DNA from: an uncultured bacterium
Lineage (GTDB): Bacteria; Armatimonadota; Abditibacteriia; Abditibacteriales; Abditibacteriaceae
Assembly (NCBI GenBank): GCA_963843795.1
Contig: CAWJLW010000004.1
Location: forward strand, 1-64,000
DNA length: 64,000 bases
Reading direction: 5' to 3'
Positions 3,519 through 60,471 of the stretch are shown piece after piece; position 1 is the first letter of the stretch, and the number at the start of each line of letters is the position of its first letter. Below the pieces are notes generated by a model. That model saw nothing but the letters and a program-made list of their open reading frames with translations, ran no database searches and was not told where the DNA came from. The translations under genes and the position numbers were made by a program.

Positions 3519-5444
3519 GTGGCCAGTGCGCTGGGAGTAGCTACATCCGTTTCAAGCGTTTCGTCTTCTCCCCAAACCCTCGCGATGGTGTGCTGTATTT
3601 TATGCTCATTGCGCGCAATTTCAGTGTTTAAATTTTCGATCTCGATTTGATAACCCTCAATCTCCGCCACGATTTCTTGCTGCACATTCAAAGGTGGCAA
3701 GGGGATTTTATGGGTTTCGTAAACATCAGAACGGTTTAACCCGGGAATACCTGCGCCGCCTCTCAACTCAGGCAAATTCAAACTTTGAAAATCCAATATA
3801 GATACTTAAGATCAGATTGATCCGGTTCTGTTTGCTTAATGTAGTAAGTCGTATCTATTGGAAAACAATTTTCCTCGTATAAACGTGACTTCACCTGCTG
3901 AACCTTTCGACCAACAACAATTGCCGGCCCTCTACAAGGTAATCATCATGGTAGCCAGTTATTCCGTTTGATCCTACAACTGGAAATGGACCTTCTCTTC
4001 GTGTTGCTTTTGGCAGACTTGCACCGTATTCCAATGTGCAAACATTCTCAAATTTTTTGAGAGGAAAGAGAGATGTGCGAACATCCATTCTCCCGATACC
4101 TTTCTCCACTCAAATTGTAGTCGCCATTGGCAGCGATTTTGGTTTTTGCGCACAATTTGGCCCAGCGTGAGCGTGAAGATCGTTCAAGGCTTCACCCGCG
4201 CGCAGCCGCTGCAGATATTGCTTGATTTCACTTTGGCTTGGGCAAGTCGTTTTTTTCGATGGCACGACGCTGCGCGCCCAAACCAAAGCCATCGTTTTCG
4301 ATTTTGAAAAATCCGACCGTTTCACTGTGCTTTGGCAATGCTTTTATCAAAGATCAGAATTGAAGTTTTAACACCCGAATACGGCTGAAAAATTCCCGCC
4401 GGAAGCGAGACTACGGCCACTAGATAATCTTCAACCAGCATCTTACGCAATGCTTTGTAAGCGGTCTGGCTTTGAAAAATGATGCCTTCGGGCACGATAA
4501 TTCCGGCGCGGCCCGCGCGTTTTAAGATGTTCGGCGATGTAATCCACAAACAACACTTCGCTGCGGTTGGATGTGAATCGAAAATCTCTTATGCGGCTTG
4601 ATGCCGCCTTTGGGCGACATAAAAGGCGGATTCGCCAGAACCACATCAGAGCGTTCGTTCCATTTTTCATCGGAGGTCAGCGTGTCGTATTCGTCAATGT
4701 GCGGTTCGTTGAAGCCGTGCAGATACAAGTTCACCAGAGAGAAGCGCACCATATCGGGCGAAATATCATAGCCGCATCAGGTTTTTGGCCATCGCGCCCG
4801 TCTCGTCGGGAGTGAGCGTGTCATTGCCCTTTTTCGTCGCGGTTGGTTGCTCATGATATGCTTGTAAGACGAAATCAAAAAGCCCGCCGTGCCACAGGCC
4901 GGATCAAGAATGGTTTCGTGCTTTTTGCGGGTCGAGCAGTTCGACCATGAAATCAATAATATGGCGCGGGGTGCGGAACTGTCCCGCCGCGCCCTGCGAA
5001 CCCAAGCACCGAAAGCAGATATTCAAAGGCATCGCCTAGACGTTCGGAGTGGTCGTATTCAAATTCCTCAATGATTTTCAAAAAGCTTTTCAGCGTTTCC
5101 GGGTCGCGATAAGGCAGAGTAAGCGTTTTTGAAAATCTCTCGAAACAGTGGCGGGATGATCGGGGTTTTCCGGCATTTTGTCGATGGCTTCGCCGTAGAA
5201 TTTCAGTGTTTCAGCGCCGCCTCGCCCCGGTTTGCATCAATTTGGCCCAGCCAAAGCGCGCGTAATCGCCCGCGAAAAATTGGCGTTTGCCGCCGAGTTC
5301 TTCGACTTCGGCGTCCATGTCATCCATGAACTTGTAAATCAGGGCAATGGTGATTTGTTCGACTTGGGATTTGGGATCGGGCACTTTGCCCACAAGAATG
5401 TCGCGCGCCGTGTCAATGCGGCGTTTGGTCGTGGTATCGAGCAT
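3515..5444 (-). pseudogene. hsdM: Type I R-M N6-adenine methyltransferase fused to a specificity (TRD) domain, in several frameshifted pieces
   Basis: MLDTTTKRRIDTARDILVGKVPDPKSQVEQITIALIYKFMDDMD, VVLANPPF, GIIVPEG, VVSLPAGIFQPYSGVKTSIL, and HsdS-like GPFPVVGSNG and IPLPPLNVQQEIV. Confidence 0.85.
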
Positions 5445-5507
5445 AAAAATGAAAAGGCCAAGCCCATCAATGGCTGAGCCATAATGGGGCCTTAGCCAGT
5501 CGCGGGT

Positions 5508-8035
5508 TTAGCTCGTAAATTGATTGGTCTGCACATAAGTCTCGATATATTCGGGGACTATGGTGCGATATTTTTCGGGTACGGCTTTGAAATCAGTTGT
5601 CGAAAATGCGGCGTTGGTCGCCAGATCACCGAACTGCTTCGTGTTGATGATTTCGCGCAGAGGTTGCTGGTAGTATAAGCCTTGAAAAAATTGCGCAGCG
5701 CGGGAATGGCTGGCGTATCGGCAGGAATATGTTCGGCCAAAAACTTGTCAAATTCTTCTTCCAACAGTTCATCTTTGGATTTGAAGCGCGGGATTACGCC
5801 CAACGCTTTTTCGACGATCTCGCGCAACGAAAGACGACGATCTACGGCCGCTGCTTTGCGCAGATTGTGGCAGTGTGAAAAGTCCGTCCGGTTGGTTCAG
5901 CACATGGCGGTTGAGATAATCCACCGCGCGCTCCCAATCGCCCTCAGCCACGCTTTGGGCGATAACCGGCGAGGCTTTGACCTTCTCTTCGAACTTTTCC
6001 AAAAACATGCGGTCGATTTTCATGCCCTGAGCGCCCACAGGTTGCTCTTGGAGGGTGGTGAGAATATCGCTGCCCTGATACTCATGAGCACCACCGACCA
6101 CACCCTTTGAAGGGTCGCCGCCGTCACCAGTGGGCAGCGGCGGCAAGGTCAGAACCTCATCGTATTGAAAATCTTTTTCAAAGTACTGGCAGTTGGCAAA
6201 GAAATCAAACAGCTTGAAGGTGGTTTTTTGCGGCGCGCTGATGCTGTCTTTTAGCTCGTCATCGGTGATCTCTTCGCGAAAATCGTGTTTGCGCGTGCCG
6301 CGCCCCTTGATCTGAATGAAATCTGTCGGCGAAAAAATCGGACGGAATAAGCCGAGGTTGAGCAGATCGGGACAGTCGTAGCCGGTCGTCATCATGCCGA
6401 CCGTCACGCACACGCGCGCCTTGCTGGTGCGGTAAGCATCCAAGATGTTGGCCGTGCCGAGCAGATTGTTATTGGCGAAGTTAATGGTGAACTGCTGCGC
6501 ATCATAAATCTGCGAAGTCACCTGCACCGCAAAGTCCGACTGGTAGCGGCCCGGAAACAGCTTATCGGCCATCACATTGAGAATTTGGGTCAGCTTGCAA
6601 GCGTGATCTTGGCTGACGGCAAAGATAATGGACTTGCCGATTTCACCGCTGACCGGATCGCGGAGGGCTTCTTCGAGGAAAGTTTTGCAGAACACTTCAT
6701 TGGTGGCTTGGGAAGTGAAGCGCTTTCCAAAGTCGCTGTGATCGAAAATCTGCCGTTGGGTCTTCGCCGTTCTCGTCTTGAAACTCGTGGATGAAACCCT
6801 TTTCCGAAAGCAGTTCGGTCGTGACTTCAGTGCGCGCATCGACAACGGTCGGATTGACCAGAAATCCATCTTTCACGCCATCAAGCAGCGAGTAGCGATA
6901 GGTCGGCTCGCCATCTTCGCAGCCAAAGGTGCGGTAGGTATCGAGCAACATGCGGCGCTCGTATTCGCGCGGGTCGGAAGTTGTCGGATTGGTGCGGTCG
7001 AAATGCTTCAGGTATTCGCGTGGCGTGGCGGTCAAACCCAGCTTGTAGCCCACGAAATACTCAAAGACCGCGCGCGCGTTGCCGCCGATGGAGCGGTGCG
7101 CTTCGTCAGAGATCACCAGATCAAAGTCAGTCGGCGAAAAGAGCGACTTGTATTTGTTGTTGAAAAGCAGCGATTGCACCGTGGTGACGACGATTTCGGC
7201 GTGCTGCCAATCGTCGCGATTTTCTTTGAAAATCACGGTTTTGTAATCGTTGGCCAGCAGCGTGGTGAAGGCTTTTTTGGCCTGATCTTCCAATTCGAGA
7301 CGATCCACTAAAAAGAGCACGCGGCGCGCATTGCCCGAGCGCAGAAACAGTTTGATGACCGCCGCCGACAAGAGCGTTTTGCCGGTGCCGGTCGCCATCT
7401 CGAAAAGGAAGCGATCTTTGTTGGCGCTGACGGCGGCTTGCAACTGGTGAACGGCTTTTTCTTGGTAGGGACGCAAAAAGCGCAGCTTGTTGGCTTGAAT
7501 GTAAGCGGGCCGCTCCGCTTCGTTTTTCCACGCCGCCACCGTTTGGTATTCGGGGCGTTGGGTCAGGGCGATGTAATCCGCGCCCACCGTTTCAGCGATC
7601 AGCTTTTGCGGATCGGGTGCGCTTTTGCTGTAACCGATCACCGATTGCGGCGAGGGAAACGCCGTGATGAGGCTTGGGACTGCCGCGCTCTAAATCCCAG
7701 AAATAATGCAGATTGCCATTGGACAAAATCACGAAACGACAGTTGAGTGAACGGGCGTATCTGCGCGCTTGCTCTTTGCCGATCAACGGCTCTTTGTCCT
7801 CAGCTTTGGCTTCCAATACGATGAGCGGCGAACCTTTGGCATCGAGCAAAAGAAAGTCGATGAAGCCTTTGCTGGCCTTCTCAAAGTTCTCTCCCAACTC
7901 GTTCAATGCGGTTTTGGTTAACGCCACGCCGGGTTCCAGACGGATGTTCGCGGGGCCGTCAACATCCGCAAAAAAACGCCATCCCGCCGCTTCCAACAAA
8001 CGATTGATTTTAATTCTGGCAGTCGCTTCTTTCAT
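5508..8035 (-). pseudogene. hsdR: Type I R-M restriction subunit (EcoEI-like DEAD/H helicase-nuclease), frameshifted
   Basis: IDFLLLD..LEAK nuclease, LRPYQ, MATGTGKT, DEAHRS, GLTATP, TGYDCP and QIKGRGTR motifs spread over ORFs 7592-8035, 6697-7641, 5769-6869 and 5558-5827. Confidence 0.88.
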
Positions 8036-8854: not shown

Positions 8855-9425
8855 CTAAAGCAGCGTTTCATATTCGCTGAGCCTTTGGACCGTTTGAGGC
8901 AGGGGAATAGCCCGTAAGTGATCCAAATGTTCTTGGACTGTGCGGGGAGGTTTCTTTAGTAGCTCTCGTTGATCTTTGACGCACTTGCAGACTTTGCCGG
9001 GATGTAAATCTATTTGAGAACATATAAAATCGTCTGGATGAATAGCTTCGATGTCCCACTTTTCTAGCTCTGATGCGGGAAAATCTTTTACGTTCATCGT
9101 GATAATTCCACCTGCACCACATTTGATAGCTGCCGCCAACACATGCCTGTCGTCTAGGTCATGCAAAGACAAAATATCAATGAGTGGCTCATAGCCCGTC
9201 ACCAAAGCATCCCTTACATGCATATCCATCAGATCCCTAGTTCTTTCTAGTTTGCTGAATGGAATGTCAGGCATGTTATTATGGACATTTCGCATCCATT
9301 CGTCATGGATTTGCGCAGTCCATCTCGCTTTGAACATATCGGTGAGAGCAAGATGCATTAAAAGCCCGCGTAAATTCTAGAGGGTACAAAACGCATGCAT
9401 CGTAAATGACAGTGAATTTAGCCAT
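8855..9425 (-). CDS. PIN-domain (VapC-like) toxin with a frameshift near the 5' end
   Basis: MAKFTVIYDACVLYP from 9425, then WTAQIHDEW..DLDDRHVLAAAIKCGAGGIITMNVKDFP..IHPDDF. Confidence 0.85.
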
Positions 9426-9484: not shown

Positions 9485-9979
9485 TTAGTAGTCAGGGCCG
9501 ATTTCCTCGGATAGTTCTGACAGTTCTCGCAAGGCAGCCAAGCGCTTCGTATCCACCTCTTCCTTGTAACGTACAACATCTTCAAGATATACGCGCCGAT
9601 GGGTACCGACTTTGTGATAGTCGATTTTCCCATTTTCCAGTAAGTTAATGAAATACGGGCGTGACACATTCAAAATTTCACTAGCCTCAACGGTGGTGAG
9701 AACACAATTTTGGGGCAAAATGCTAATACCTTTCCCCAAAGACATCTGAGTGAGGATCTCATTCAAAAGCTCCAACGCCGAGGACGGCAAACAGACTACC
9801 TCGTGCTCTCCATCTAACCGGATCTCTATTTTGACTGGCCCAGAAGAGGGGGATTTTGCCTCCCTCACACGCAAGCCTCCTAATAAATGCGAAAGCTTTT
9901 GGCTAGATTCCTTTGCCATCGCGCTCTCAGATGGGGTAGGCAAAAGCGAACTGGGCATTTGTTTAATTTGTGTGCTCAT
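9485..9979 (-). CDS. Excisionase-family HTH_17 DNA-binding protein, probable antitoxin of the PIN gene
   Basis: LTTVEASEILNVSRPYFINLLENGKIDYHKVGTHRRVYLEDVVRYK, directly upstream of the PIN gene. Confidence 0.88.
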   Translation of the reverse strand: MSTQIKQMPSSLLPTPSESAMAKESSQKLSHLLGGLRVREAKSPSSGPVKIEIRLDGEHEVVCLPSSALELLNEILTQMSLGKGISILPQNCVLTTVEASEILNVSRPYFINLLENGKIDYHKVGTHRRVYLEDVVRYKEEVDTKRLAALRELSELSEEIGPDY

Positions 9980-10126
9980 TTTAATCACCTTTTCATTTGT
10001 GCCTAAGGGTACGAACTGGTGTTGGGACATCCTCTAACTTTCGTACCTCTCTACTTGTTTATACCTTAAACGCAATAAGTGCAACAAAGGTTTCGTCTCG
10101 TTGTTTTCAAATATAGGAGCGTGATA

Positions 10127-10330
10127 GGCGATACCGTATATATACGGTATCGCCCTTTTTATCTCCGACCCTATGAGGTATATATACCTCATAGGGTACG
10201 GCCACCCACTGCTATGCAATAGGTATATATACCTATTGCATAGCAGTGGGTGGCCGCGCGTACACGCGAATCACATCAAGTGTGTAGAAAGGCCTCATGA
10301 GGTATATATACCTCATGAGGCCTTTCTACA
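10127..10330. repeat. Four perfect palindromes (28, 30, 58 and 48 bp) sharing a GTATATATAC centre
   Basis: 10127-10154, 10168-10197, 10199-10256 and 10283-10330 are each fully self-complementary. Confidence 0.97.
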
Positions 10331-11215
10331 ATGAATGAAATCCTTCTTACCAAATTGAGAGCTATGACTGCGGAAACTTTAACCGGCGCTCCTGGTTCAG
10401 TTTTTACTCAAACGCAAATCAGTAGCTTTCTTGAGAAGCTAAAATCTAATGATGAGGAGCTAACTTCAGTATCACTTAGCAGTTTCATCAAATTCCTTTT
10501 GGATGAGCCTTTCTTGAGCGAAACTCGCCTAGATTTTCCTCACCGTTCGTTGCTACGTTTTTTGAAAAGTAATGAGGATGCAAACCTTTTTGAGCTAGCA
10601 CAGTCTCTTGCCCCACATGGCTATTTGTCACACAGATCTGCAATTGAGATACATGGCTTGTCGAAAAAAAACTCTCAGACCTTTTATGTCAATGAGGAGC
10701 AAACTCCGAAGCCTGAAAATAGTTCAGATATGCAACAGTCTAATATCGACCGGAGTTTCAGAAAATCGCCCCGTGTCTCCAACAACTTTATCTCGATTGA
10801 GGGGAACAAATTTTATGTGTTAAACGGGAAAAATACCAAAAATGCAGGTGCGATAGATTACGAGTTGCCTAATGGTGCAATTGTTCGTGTTACTGGTGTC
10901 GAAAGAACTTTGATAGATATTGTAGTCAGACCCTTTTACGCAGGGGGTGTTGAAGAAGTAATAACAGCCTATCAACGTGCCATTTCTAAAATCAATCCTG
11001 ATCTGATGATTAAGCTTTTGGCGCGCTGCCATCATGCCTATCCTTACCATCAGGCTATTGGCTTCTACATGGAGAGAGCAGGAGGCTATGAAAAAGACGT
11101 TATCCAGATTTTCGGCAATATGCCACGCGACTATGATTTTTATTTAGATAATAAAATGAAAGATCCCAACTACTCAGAAAAATGGCGTATCTACTATCCA
11201 AGAGAATTAGACTGA
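10331..11215 (+). CDS. AbiEi-like (type IV TA antitoxin/regulator) protein with no adjacent AbiEii
   Basis: GYLSHRSAIEIHGL and VRVTGVERTLIDIVVRPFYAGGVEEV are typical of AbiEi C-terminal domains. Low GC. Confidence 0.7.
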   Translation: MNEILLTKLRAMTAETLTGAPGSVFTQTQISSFLEKLKSNDEELTSVSLSSFIKFLLDEPFLSETRLDFPHRSLLRFLKSNEDANLFELAQSLAPHGYLSHRSAIEIHGLSKKNSQTFYVNEEQTPKPENSSDMQQSNIDRSFRKSPRVSNNFISIEGNKFYVLNGKNTKNAGAIDYELPNGAIVRVTGVERTLIDIVVRPFYAGGVEEVITAYQRAISKINPDLMIKLLARCHHAYPYHQAIGFYMERAGGYEKDVIQIFGNMPRDYDFYLDNKMKDPNYSEKWRIYYPRELD

Positions 11216-11341
11216 ATTCAGATGCCCACTTTAATCCTAATTCCAAGTAGACAGAAGTGCATCCACCATCAAGACACATCAAAATTAGGACTTACAGATT
11301 TTAAGCGCTTGTATCAATTCTAAAGGAGCGTTGAGAATGGC

Positions 11342-11411: not shown

Positions 11412-12149
11412 ATGACACAATCACAGCCGACACCACCCCGCCCCTTTGTGGCCTACTACCGCGTTTCGACCGACAAGCAGGGCCGCAGTGGTTTGGGATT
11501 GGACGCGCAAAAAGCCGCCGTGCAGCAATTCATTGGGCGCAGCGGCGGCGAACTGTGCGCGAGCTTTCAGGAGATCGAGACCGGAAAGCACAGCGCGCGG
11601 CCCGAATTGCAAAGCGCCTTGAAATTGTGCCGCCAGAAAAAAGCGGTTCTCGTAATCGCCAAACTGGATCGCCTGTCGCGCAATCTGGCCTTTATCGCCA
11701 ATCTGATGGAAAGTGGCGTGGATTTCGTGGCGTGTGATATGCCGACCGCCAACAAGACCATGTTGCAAATTATGGCCGTGTTTGCCGAGCATGAACGCGA
11801 GGCGATTTCGCAGCGCACCAAAGATGCCCTGCAAGCCGCCAAAGCGCGCGGACAGCAATTGGGCAATCCCCGCCCCGATGTGCCGAAGATGAACCGGAGG
11901 CGCGCCCAAACTGCGCGCGCGTTTCGGGAAGGACATTACCTGCAAATCAAAGCCTTGCACGATAGCGGAATGACCTTGCGCGCCATCGCCCAGACGCTCA
12001 ACGAGCGCGGCACCCGCAGCCAGAACAACCGCCAATGGCACGCCGAAGCGGTGCGCCTGATCTTGAAACGCCACCAAGAAACTTCCCACGACACCAGCCC
12101 CGAAGCTAATCCCAACACTAATCGCAGCACTAATATAGAGGCCGCGTAG
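11412..12149 (+). CDS. Serine recombinase/resolvase
   Basis: FVAYYRVSTDKQGRSGLGLDAQ, RPELQSAL, AKLDRLSR, AEHEREAISQRTKDALQAAKARG..LGNP and a C-terminal HTH. Confidence 0.95.
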   Translation: MTQSQPTPPRPFVAYYRVSTDKQGRSGLGLDAQKAAVQQFIGRSGGELCASFQEIETGKHSARPELQSALKLCRQKKAVLVIAKLDRLSRNLAFIANLMESGVDFVACDMPTANKTMLQIMAVFAEHEREAISQRTKDALQAAKARGQQLGNPRPDVPKMNRRRAQTARAFREGHYLQIKALHDSGMTLRAIAQTLNERGTRSQNNRQWHAEAVRLILKRHQETSHDTSPEANPNTNRSTNIEAA

Positions 12150-12181
12150 TTTTGTGCTGCAAGTACTTGCAGCACAAAACT
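12148..12181. terminator. 34-bp perfect palindrome around GCAAGTACTTGC at the resolvase stop
   Basis: AGTTTTGTGCTGCAAGTACTTGCAGCACAAAACT. Confidence 0.55.
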
Positions 12182-33927: not shown

Positions 33928-34061
33928 GAAGAAAACAAAAGGGCCAGAAAATGCAAAAAACTAGAAAATGCAAAGAACTGGGAAGTGCAAAGGCCCGAAA
34001 ACGCAAAAACGCCGCTGCAAGTACTTGCAGCGGCGGAGTGCCAGATCAGATTGGTTTGCGG

Positions 34062-46910: not shown

Positions 46911-46944
46911 CGTCAATCAGTGCACCGCGGTGCACTGATTGACG
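46911..46944. repeat. 34-bp perfect palindrome at the distal end of the cassette array
   Basis: CGTCAATCAGTGCACCG|CGGTGCACTGATTGACG. Confidence 0.9.
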
Positions 46945-60396: not shown

Positions 60397-60471
60397 AAAC
60401 CAAAAACAAACGACAAACGCCGCTGCAAGTACTTGCAGCGGCGTAATGCCAGATCAGATTTAAAAGCGGTT

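Follow-up and report, generated by a model that had tools for sequence, protein, structure and literature searches.

The four perfect palindromes that fill the space between two divergent genes in the stretch of DNA analysed here (the window, the first 64 kb of the 100-kb contig C4) probably constitute the operator array of the adjacent AbiEi-like protein, with arms that are likely kept symmetric by copying from one arm to the other. Palindrome arrays of this type are a trait of the AbiEi-like subfamily, present before nearly all of the genes sampled, and not just of the window. The operator function is best inferred from the precedent of AbiEi proteins, the position of the sites and their 10.5-bp phasing. 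In the proposed mechanism, two subunits of the AbiEi-like protein would occupy each 28-bp unit, one on either half, the bound protein would repress its own promoter, looping might occur between phased sites, and repeated template switching during replication would keep the arms perfectly symmetric. The window locus would work as an AbiEi operator region, yet it is no canonical AbiE system but a variant, in which some process seems to keep the arms symmetric.

The palindromes of the window and their neighbourhood

The array and the genes on its two sides are arranged as follows:
8855..9358, minus strand: PIN-domain gene, partner of the HTH_17 gene; RSP_2648-like, below the cut-off of that model
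9485..10030, minus strand: HTH_17 (excisionase-like) gene, member of a divergent toxin-antitoxin-like pair; potential target of the array, no fixed part of the family
10127..10154, no strand: palindrome 1, 28 bp (14+14), the basic 28-bp unit of the family; likely distal operator
10168..10197, no strand: palindrome 2, 30 bp (15+15); likely operator
10199..10256, no strand: palindrome 3, 58 bp (29+29), arms longer than the 14-bp unit; likely operator
10283..10330, no strand: palindrome 4, 48 bp (24+24); likely proximal operator
10331..11215, plus strand: AbiEi-like antitoxin/regulator, 294 aa, winged helix and NTase-like C-terminal domain

The original prediction described four spacer-less palindromes of 28, 30, 58 and 48 bp with a shared axis, a sequence common to three of them and the abutment of the last one on the ATG at 10331. 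All of this was confirmed (the lengths being those of the assembly): the core GTATATATAC is present in all four, AGGTATATATACCT is found in three and palindromes 2 and 4 have 20 bp in common. The nested palindrome that had been noted in the last member, CCTCATGAGG, is also there, but it measures just 10 bp. The expected numbers of such palindromes by chance per 64 kb are 3e-4, 8e-5, 4e-13 and 4e-10 for palindromes 1 to 4, and the array region folded as single-stranded DNA has a z of -20. Its GC content is 42-44%, compared to 56% in the window. The centre of palindrome 4 lies 24-25 bp before the ATG and that of palindrome 1, which is followed by a T run, 110 bp from the start of the divergent HTH_17 ORF. 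The spacing between palindromes 3 and 4 is 79 bp (7.5 turns).

In the 4.3-Mb genome GTATATATAC occurs four times, every time inside the array. Long palindromes as such are common in the host, since 717 of its 802 perfect palindromes of at least 20 bp are built around a different core, GCAAGTACTTGC; this richness may help to explain the unusual arm length of two of the four palindromes. The 12-mer GCAAGTACTTGC has 2567 copies in the genome (G000) and 0-3 in each of 60 relatives. About 700 of the copies extend into perfect palindromes of at least 20 bp, whose arms vary and whose lengths show a second maximum at 16-18 bp per arm. They often have A/T runs at their ends, in the manner of two-way terminators; in the window they lie at 1254-1275, 12148-12181, 34010-34035, 60417-60444 and elsewhere. 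Single perfect palindromes of 30-34 bp with neither core were also observed at window 46911-46944 and at 2527-2556 of contig C3 of the same genome (G000:C3:2527-2556), the latter starting with TGTAGAA, as does palindrome 4.

The product of ORF 10331-11215 matches Pfam AbiEi_1 (PF09407) above the cut-off and the PADLOC AbiEi model with an E value of 2e-19. Its AlphaFold2 model (pLDDT 95) retrieved 6y8q (E 8e-8) and 1zel (E 3e-5) in Foldseek, with fold alignment Z scores of 14.5 and 13.1; the best fold match is Rv2827c (Z 14.5, rmsd 4.5, 244 aligned residues, identity 12%). As modelled, the protein thus has the AbiEi/Rv2827c fold. A PDB sequence search with the family profile gave nothing significant, and the link to AbiEi structures came from the fold search only. 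The protein has 1669 homologous protein clusters. Neither Pfam nor a profile of 106 family toxins detected a cognate AbiEii/DUF1814 toxin in the window or in the genome, which is 92% complete. A weak tblastn hint of a toxin remnant at 11230-11298 (minus strand) was rejected, being unsupported by the toxin profile.

Homologues of the HTH_17/PIN pair were detected at none of the 179 other loci collected, so HTH_17 is an unlikely reader of the palindromes and the pair was discarded as a part of the system. Among the 78 ORFs scanned on contig C4 are genes for a terminase, a tail tube protein, RepA, ParA/ParB, a tyrosine integrase and an S24 repressor, a 2249-aa Strawberry-notch helicase, an intein-bearing gene, ArdC, HigB and PemK toxins, and IS110 copies; by its gene content the contig looks like a phage-plasmid. 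The 16S rRNA gene of the genome (L001) appears Armatimonadota-like (Abditibacteriaceae). A resolvase gene lies downstream of the array, within the window. At 3900-8035, type I restriction-modification-like genes are split into several overlapping ORFs, suggesting frameshifts through assembly or decay.

The array across the AbiEi-like subfamily

The locus set comprised the best 80 of 559 genome loci, the best 80 of 560 metagenome loci, one viral locus, 17 plasmid loci and the family relative G016, that is, 180 loci including the window. A palindrome was counted if its arms had at least 12 bp and it lay at most 450 bp from the start, at loci with at least 300 bp upstream. Such palindromes precede 70 of 73 genome loci and, after removal of 12 near-duplicates, 114 of the 122 non-redundant genome and metagenome loci, from many phyla, leaving eight without one. 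The original prediction had proposed looking for similar arrays at homologous loci, and this count, together with arrays before homologues in complete isolate plasmids and chromosomes, implies that the array type is not an assembly artefact. As a background, none was found in 70 kb of genes and eight in 361 kb of other flank, five of these eight being further-upstream copies that bear the family core. Most loci have two or three sites (range 1-5).

The family core is GTAT-nn-ATAC, usually TAGTATATATACTA, and it differs by protein clade, with variants at Burkholderia, Hymenobacter, Flavobacteriia and Acidobacteriota loci. In the relative G016, the sole GGTATATATACC lies inside a 24-bp palindrome just before its sole homologue. 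The consensus 16-mer was found in none of 401 genomes of the phylum, hence it is no general host site. The covariation of core bases with the protein peaks at residues 96-104, 115 and 152-154 of the C-terminal domain and not in the winged helix, a result confounded by kinship.

Spacings between neighbouring sites show a 10.5-bp period with half-turn phase (R 0.24 for 190 spacings; none of 500 jittered sets reached this R), as expected for duplex DNA. In the window, the 79-bp spacing is on the half-turn phase, and those of 42 and 45 bp are off it. In 179 of 314 sites a TATAAT-like (-10-like) hexamer begins at the centre; no -35 element was found beside it, the left and right flanks being alike, and a promoter scan found no sigma-70 site over the window array.

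Two loci have much longer palindromes: at L063 (about 1-142) a perfect palindrome of 142 bp has one core at its centre and duplicates a neighbouring site, and upstream of L018 a 76-bp perfect palindrome overlaps the next site. These may be snapshots of array growth by inverted duplication, or assembly artefacts.

The original prediction had named operators, hairpin-telomere or cruciform origin sites, and traces of a process creating fold-backs at a fixed core. Of these, operators of the AbiEi-like protein are the preferred interpretation, as the array accompanies the gene across phyla. The fold-back process is supported in a modified form, namely as concerted evolution of the arms, and the telomere and the origin find no support (see below).

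Toxin layout and toxin-less loci

Among the 180 loci, the toxin is tail-to-tail with the antitoxin gene at 145, a match lies upstream on the opposite strand at five, and 30, many of them at contig ends, have no match; 145 of the 150 loci with a toxin match are therefore tail-to-tail. None of the 88 loci scored on both strands has the co-directional, bicistronic antitoxin-toxin arrangement. Three of the five upstream matches are annotated head-to-head pairs on Lactobacillales plasmids; in L181, L185 and L187 (Lactococcus, Lactiplantibacillus and Streptococcus plasmids) a head-to-head cognate toxin lies on the other side of the array, and the arms hardly differ among copies. The other two appear to be weak matches to unrelated AbiEii genes. 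Inspection by eye of about half of the eligible loci found no half-sites upstream of the toxin starts, where the sequence is ordinary and promoter-like; with toxin starts free of half-sites, a circular permutation of the cassette between convergent and divergent forms was rejected. The tail-to-tail layout with a separate toxin promoter is unlike known AbiE and represents a new variant in this AbiEi subfamily. In these relatives, the array would set the level of the antitoxin alone.

Toxin-less loci with enough flank face a divergent toxin-antitoxin-like operon in 11 of 13 cases, compared to 2 of 66 toxin-bearing loci. The operons, all divergent from the array, are:
DUF6088 and AbiEii: G016, L018, L060 and L171
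AbiEi_4 and AbiEii: L056
AbiEi_2 and weak AbiEii: L077
Homologue of the L077 AbiEi_2, partner unannotated: L168
HTH and DUF6036: L157
HTH and Fic: L154
HTH-M78 and PemK: L046
HTH_17 and PIN: the window

Toxin-less L098 and L172 have no divergent toxin-antitoxin operon. The only toxin-bearing loci of the 66 that face another such operon are L075, whose own toxin is truncated, and L079; this control covered 94 of 129 neighbouring ORFs at E 1e-8 and passed over short ORFs that overlap the array as well as any ORF standing second behind a large gene. The distance from a site to the divergent start is 31-42 bp at L046, L077 and L139, a mirror image of the proximal site, and 110 bp in the window. 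Many of the toxin-less loci are kin, while L154 and L157/L168 stand elsewhere in the tree, and the adjacency has an alternative explanation in the clustering of toxin-antitoxin operons in defence islands. With no toxin in the window and the HTH_17/PIN pair facing the array, the antitoxin copy of the window may act as a stand-alone regulator of this divergent operon, a weaker proposal than the operator function itself. Arms at toxin-less loci are longer (mean 20 vs 15.9 bp; p 0.005 on the maximum arm), and other assemblies of toxin-less relatives have arms of 25-38 bp; the difference is discounted as evidence because most such loci belong to one deep part of the tree.

The antitoxins of L020 and L027 are 92% identical, and their palindrome arms are almost wholly different; one of these loci has a tail-to-tail toxin, and the other shows no toxin within the 846 bp downstream and stands opposite a DUF6088 antitoxin gene. 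Upstream neighbours of homologous loci are mostly housekeeping genes, with no common recombinase. The cassette lies directly behind uxaE (tagaturonate epimerase) at L019, L023, L030, L100 and L123 and behind tRNA-synthetase or ribonucleotide-reductase genes at other loci, which suggests preferred insertion sites with no linked recombinase.

Matching sites in phages

The consensus 18-mer occurs in 11 viral contigs; in eight of these its arms are perfect over 13-16 bp and the sequence beyond them is unrelated. A degenerate variant of it gave seven viral matches, three with arms of 13-16 bp. Three control palindromes of the same composition gave three, one and no viral matches. Those of the first control have 10-bp arms and two of them are one element; the single match of the second has 18-bp arms, so that long TATATA-centred palindromes are not unique to the family motif. 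At the end of viral contig L220, a 36-bp perfect palindrome with the centre ATATATAT, detected with a control pattern, stands just before a ribosome-binding-site-like GGAGG.

The phage sites lie in short gaps between co-directional virion or DNA-metabolism genes (L190-L200, L208-L214; G061-G065, G067). In several phages the site occurs once per genome, and it ends at the arm length of the family. Four of the six phage records compared belong to one clade, with one site each in the virion module, and are thus not independent. No antitoxin homologue was detected in the 10 site-bearing phage records searched, and the element is therefore not strictly tied to the antitoxin gene. The 20-mer of the window is absent from the viral contigs, and blastn of one phage site against named phages returned chance-level matches only. 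The phage sites may be decoys, sites of phage proteins or RNA hairpins.

Symmetry of the arms and its evolution

For the analysis of arms, 315 sites were chosen by their core alone, symmetry not being a criterion. The sequence information at positions 11-14 from the centre amounts to 0.02-0.19 bits, and yet the arms are complementary there at 0.91-0.96, compared to 0.26-0.36 expected from other sites within one locus. The chance per base that an arm ends is 0-3% at lengths 9-13 and about 25-40% from 14 to 20 (random DNA, 75%), i.e., the symmetry falls sharply beyond base 14. The central two bases vary and do not pair. Where a site has inner mismatches, the pairing over positions 9-14 is still 0.78. 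The two strands behave alike.

Divergence was followed in 21 related locus pairs with a protein identity of at least 75% and in 52 aligned sites; these pairs are heterogeneous, and site orthology comes from pairwise alignment of fast-changing DNA. At positions 11-14, 51 of 74 changed columns are altered on both arms with pairing kept, and the divergence is 0.32, compared to 0.34 at four-fold codon sites. The paired changes at 9-14 comprise 42 transitions and 31 transversions, a ratio similar to that of synonymous sites (251:233), with G.T and A.C mismatches in balance. A joint change of both arms at a neutral rate is what arm-to-arm copying would predict. Slow compensatory evolution via wobble pairs is at odds with these results. 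However, plain template switching does not explain the sharp edge at 14 bp, and ordinary operators do not require exact symmetry. Either the footprint of the protein bounds the copying, or a 14-bp stem is itself what is read.

The second possibility, which we consider unlikely, assumes that the protein recognizes an extruded DNA hairpin or cruciform with the conserved apex GTAT-nn-ATAC and a 14-bp stem whose sequence is arbitrary. Extrusion at the AT-rich centre, dependent on supercoiling, would be the regulatory switch, pairing would be selected for, and template switching would supply the paired changes. This would account for the 14-bp limit, the free but paired positions 11-14, the unpaired central bases, the pairing kept beyond inner mismatches, the equal treatment of strands and the equal length at which phage sites stop. 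On the other hand, the paired changes run at the full synonymous rate, and selection on pairing would slow them unless copying is fast; the helical phasing fits duplex binding, and the host encodes SbcD, a protein that attacks hairpins. Moreover, the available part of the work on solved relatives describes binding to linear duplex probes (PMC7319586).

A broader proposal joins these observations. The subfamily would either read self-complementarity (a hairpin or cruciform with a 14-bp stem) or enforce it (bound protein triggering copying over its footprint), toxin-less members would be switches for unrelated toxin-antitoxin operons, and phage mimics would soak up the autorepressor so that the antitoxin, and not the toxin, goes up. 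As a whole, it is improbable at present, and the operator array with arm-to-arm copying stays the preferred explanation.

Transcription across the array offers another explanation for self-complementary arms, in which the palindromes are RNA hairpins, i.e., processing sites, leader hairpins or RNA antitoxin units. The location of phage sites in short gaps between co-directional genes, the T run after palindrome 1 and a slight G.T excess at positions 15-18 (137:104) point in this direction. Nevertheless, there is no G.T excess in the stem (20:25) or at the first mismatch when compared to the control (Fisher p 0.76), transversions reach the frequency of synonymous sites, the spacings keep phase with the DNA helix, and proximal sites probably overlap the transcription start. 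The arrays of eight loci gave no Rfam match, and with no one-strand G.U bias a structured RNA motif was set aside; we regard RNA hairpins as very unlikely.

Possible roles in recombination, nicking or telomere resolution

The 28-bp unit with its 2-bp centre resembles the crossover sites of serine resolvases, and protelomerase target sites of linear phage-plasmids have a like size and perfect symmetry. The array lies on a phage-plasmid-like contig (terminase, tail tube, RepA, ParAB) and has a resolvase nearby, several phages have the site in a single copy per genome, and L063 has its inverted duplication centred on a core, all of which would suit recombination, nicking or telomere-resolution sites of a phage-plasmid or a mobile cassette. 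However, the sites are tandem and at promoter distance from one gene, with none seen upstream of the toxin, and the homologous loci, mostly preceded by housekeeping genes, have no recombinase in common. The original prediction advised a search of the replicon for a protelomerase or an HUH protein: PF16684 has no match in the genome, and no HUH domain was found among the 78 C4 ORFs (one Y1_Tnp lies on another contig). Unlike protelomerase sites, the four tandem sites are internal and tied to the antitoxin gene, which they follow into chromosomes and plasmids, and not to a replicon end; this speaks against the hairpin telomere. The cruciform origin is unsupported because the Rep/Par module of the contig is about 75 kb away. 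REP/RAYT or HUH-processed hairpins were also rejected, as there is no adjacent HUH enzyme and the core is not dispersed (its four copies are all in the array). Taken together, a role in recombination or telomere resolution is highly improbable.

Finally, that the long arms of the window are fold-back artefacts of sequencing or assembly, as its frameshifted genes might hint, has a very low probability, considering the like arrays before homologues in complete isolate replicons, the match of the window core to the family core, and the 25-38 bp arms in other assemblies of toxin-less relatives.

Relation to known AbiE systems

The AbiE system of Streptococcus agalactiae is described, in the available part of its report, as a bicistronic operon whose single repeat, of 23+3+23 bp, contains four mismatches in 23 bp (PMC3985639). 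The window gene and its homologues have in common with it the antitoxin fold of winged helix and C-terminal domain, the inverted repeats in the promoter and, in most homologues, a DUF1814/AbiEii nucleotidyltransferase partner. They differ in that the toxin is tail-to-tail (145/150), head-to-head (three Lactobacillales plasmids) or, as here, absent, and in that the single mismatched repeat is replaced by one to five perfect 14+14 bp units with a conserved centre and unconstrained outer parts. Both AbiEi and Rv2827c were reported to bind promoter inverted repeats and to autorepress (PMC3985639; PMC7319586, as far as their available text goes). The Rv2827c/MenA4 promoter of M. tuberculosis is similar in having several repeats in one promoter; unlike the window, it belongs to an operon and contains two pairs of 23-bp repeats with 13-bp spacers, for which the accessible text reports no exact symmetry (PMC7319586). 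As to the mechanism, a preprint available in part states that the AbiE antitoxin binds the toxin and induces its auto-phosphorylation in phage defence (bioRxiv 10.64898/2026.01.19.700257).

A precedent for toxin-less copies that face other toxin-antitoxin operons is AbiEi of S. suis ICESsuHN105, which, according to the available part of the paper, represses the promoter of another toxin-antitoxin system and binds sites outside its own promoter (PMC11062541). This AbiEi has a canonical operon with a toxin, whereas the window has no cognate toxin and has an intergenic region in common with the other operon. For the arms, the nearest parallel is quasi-palindrome correction, in which template switching perfects inverted repeats, presented in the accessible text as a general bias conserving repeats (PMC5941160). 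The concerted evolution of short inverted-repeat arms is the same; the synonymous rate, the core of one family as an anchor and the sharp 14-bp boundary are different. The literature consulted, with subscription journals covered incompletely, contains no account of a tail-to-tail AbiE, of the GTAT-nn-ATAC motif or of concerted operator evolution for the AbiEi subfamily.

Significance

AbiE, one of the most frequent defence and toxin-antitoxin systems, has been described as an operon that regulates itself, a layout from which this subfamily departs. The operator motif of the subfamily is legible directly in the sequence, which makes its regulation testable. The phage copies of the site suggest that DNA decoys may be a route of counter-defence. 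In addition, the arrays show the concerted evolution of short palindromes in an unusually clean natural form, with a fixed anchor, a 14-bp range and a neutral rate, and they provide a handle on the frequency of template switching in regulatory DNA and on cruciform reading by a bacterial repressor.
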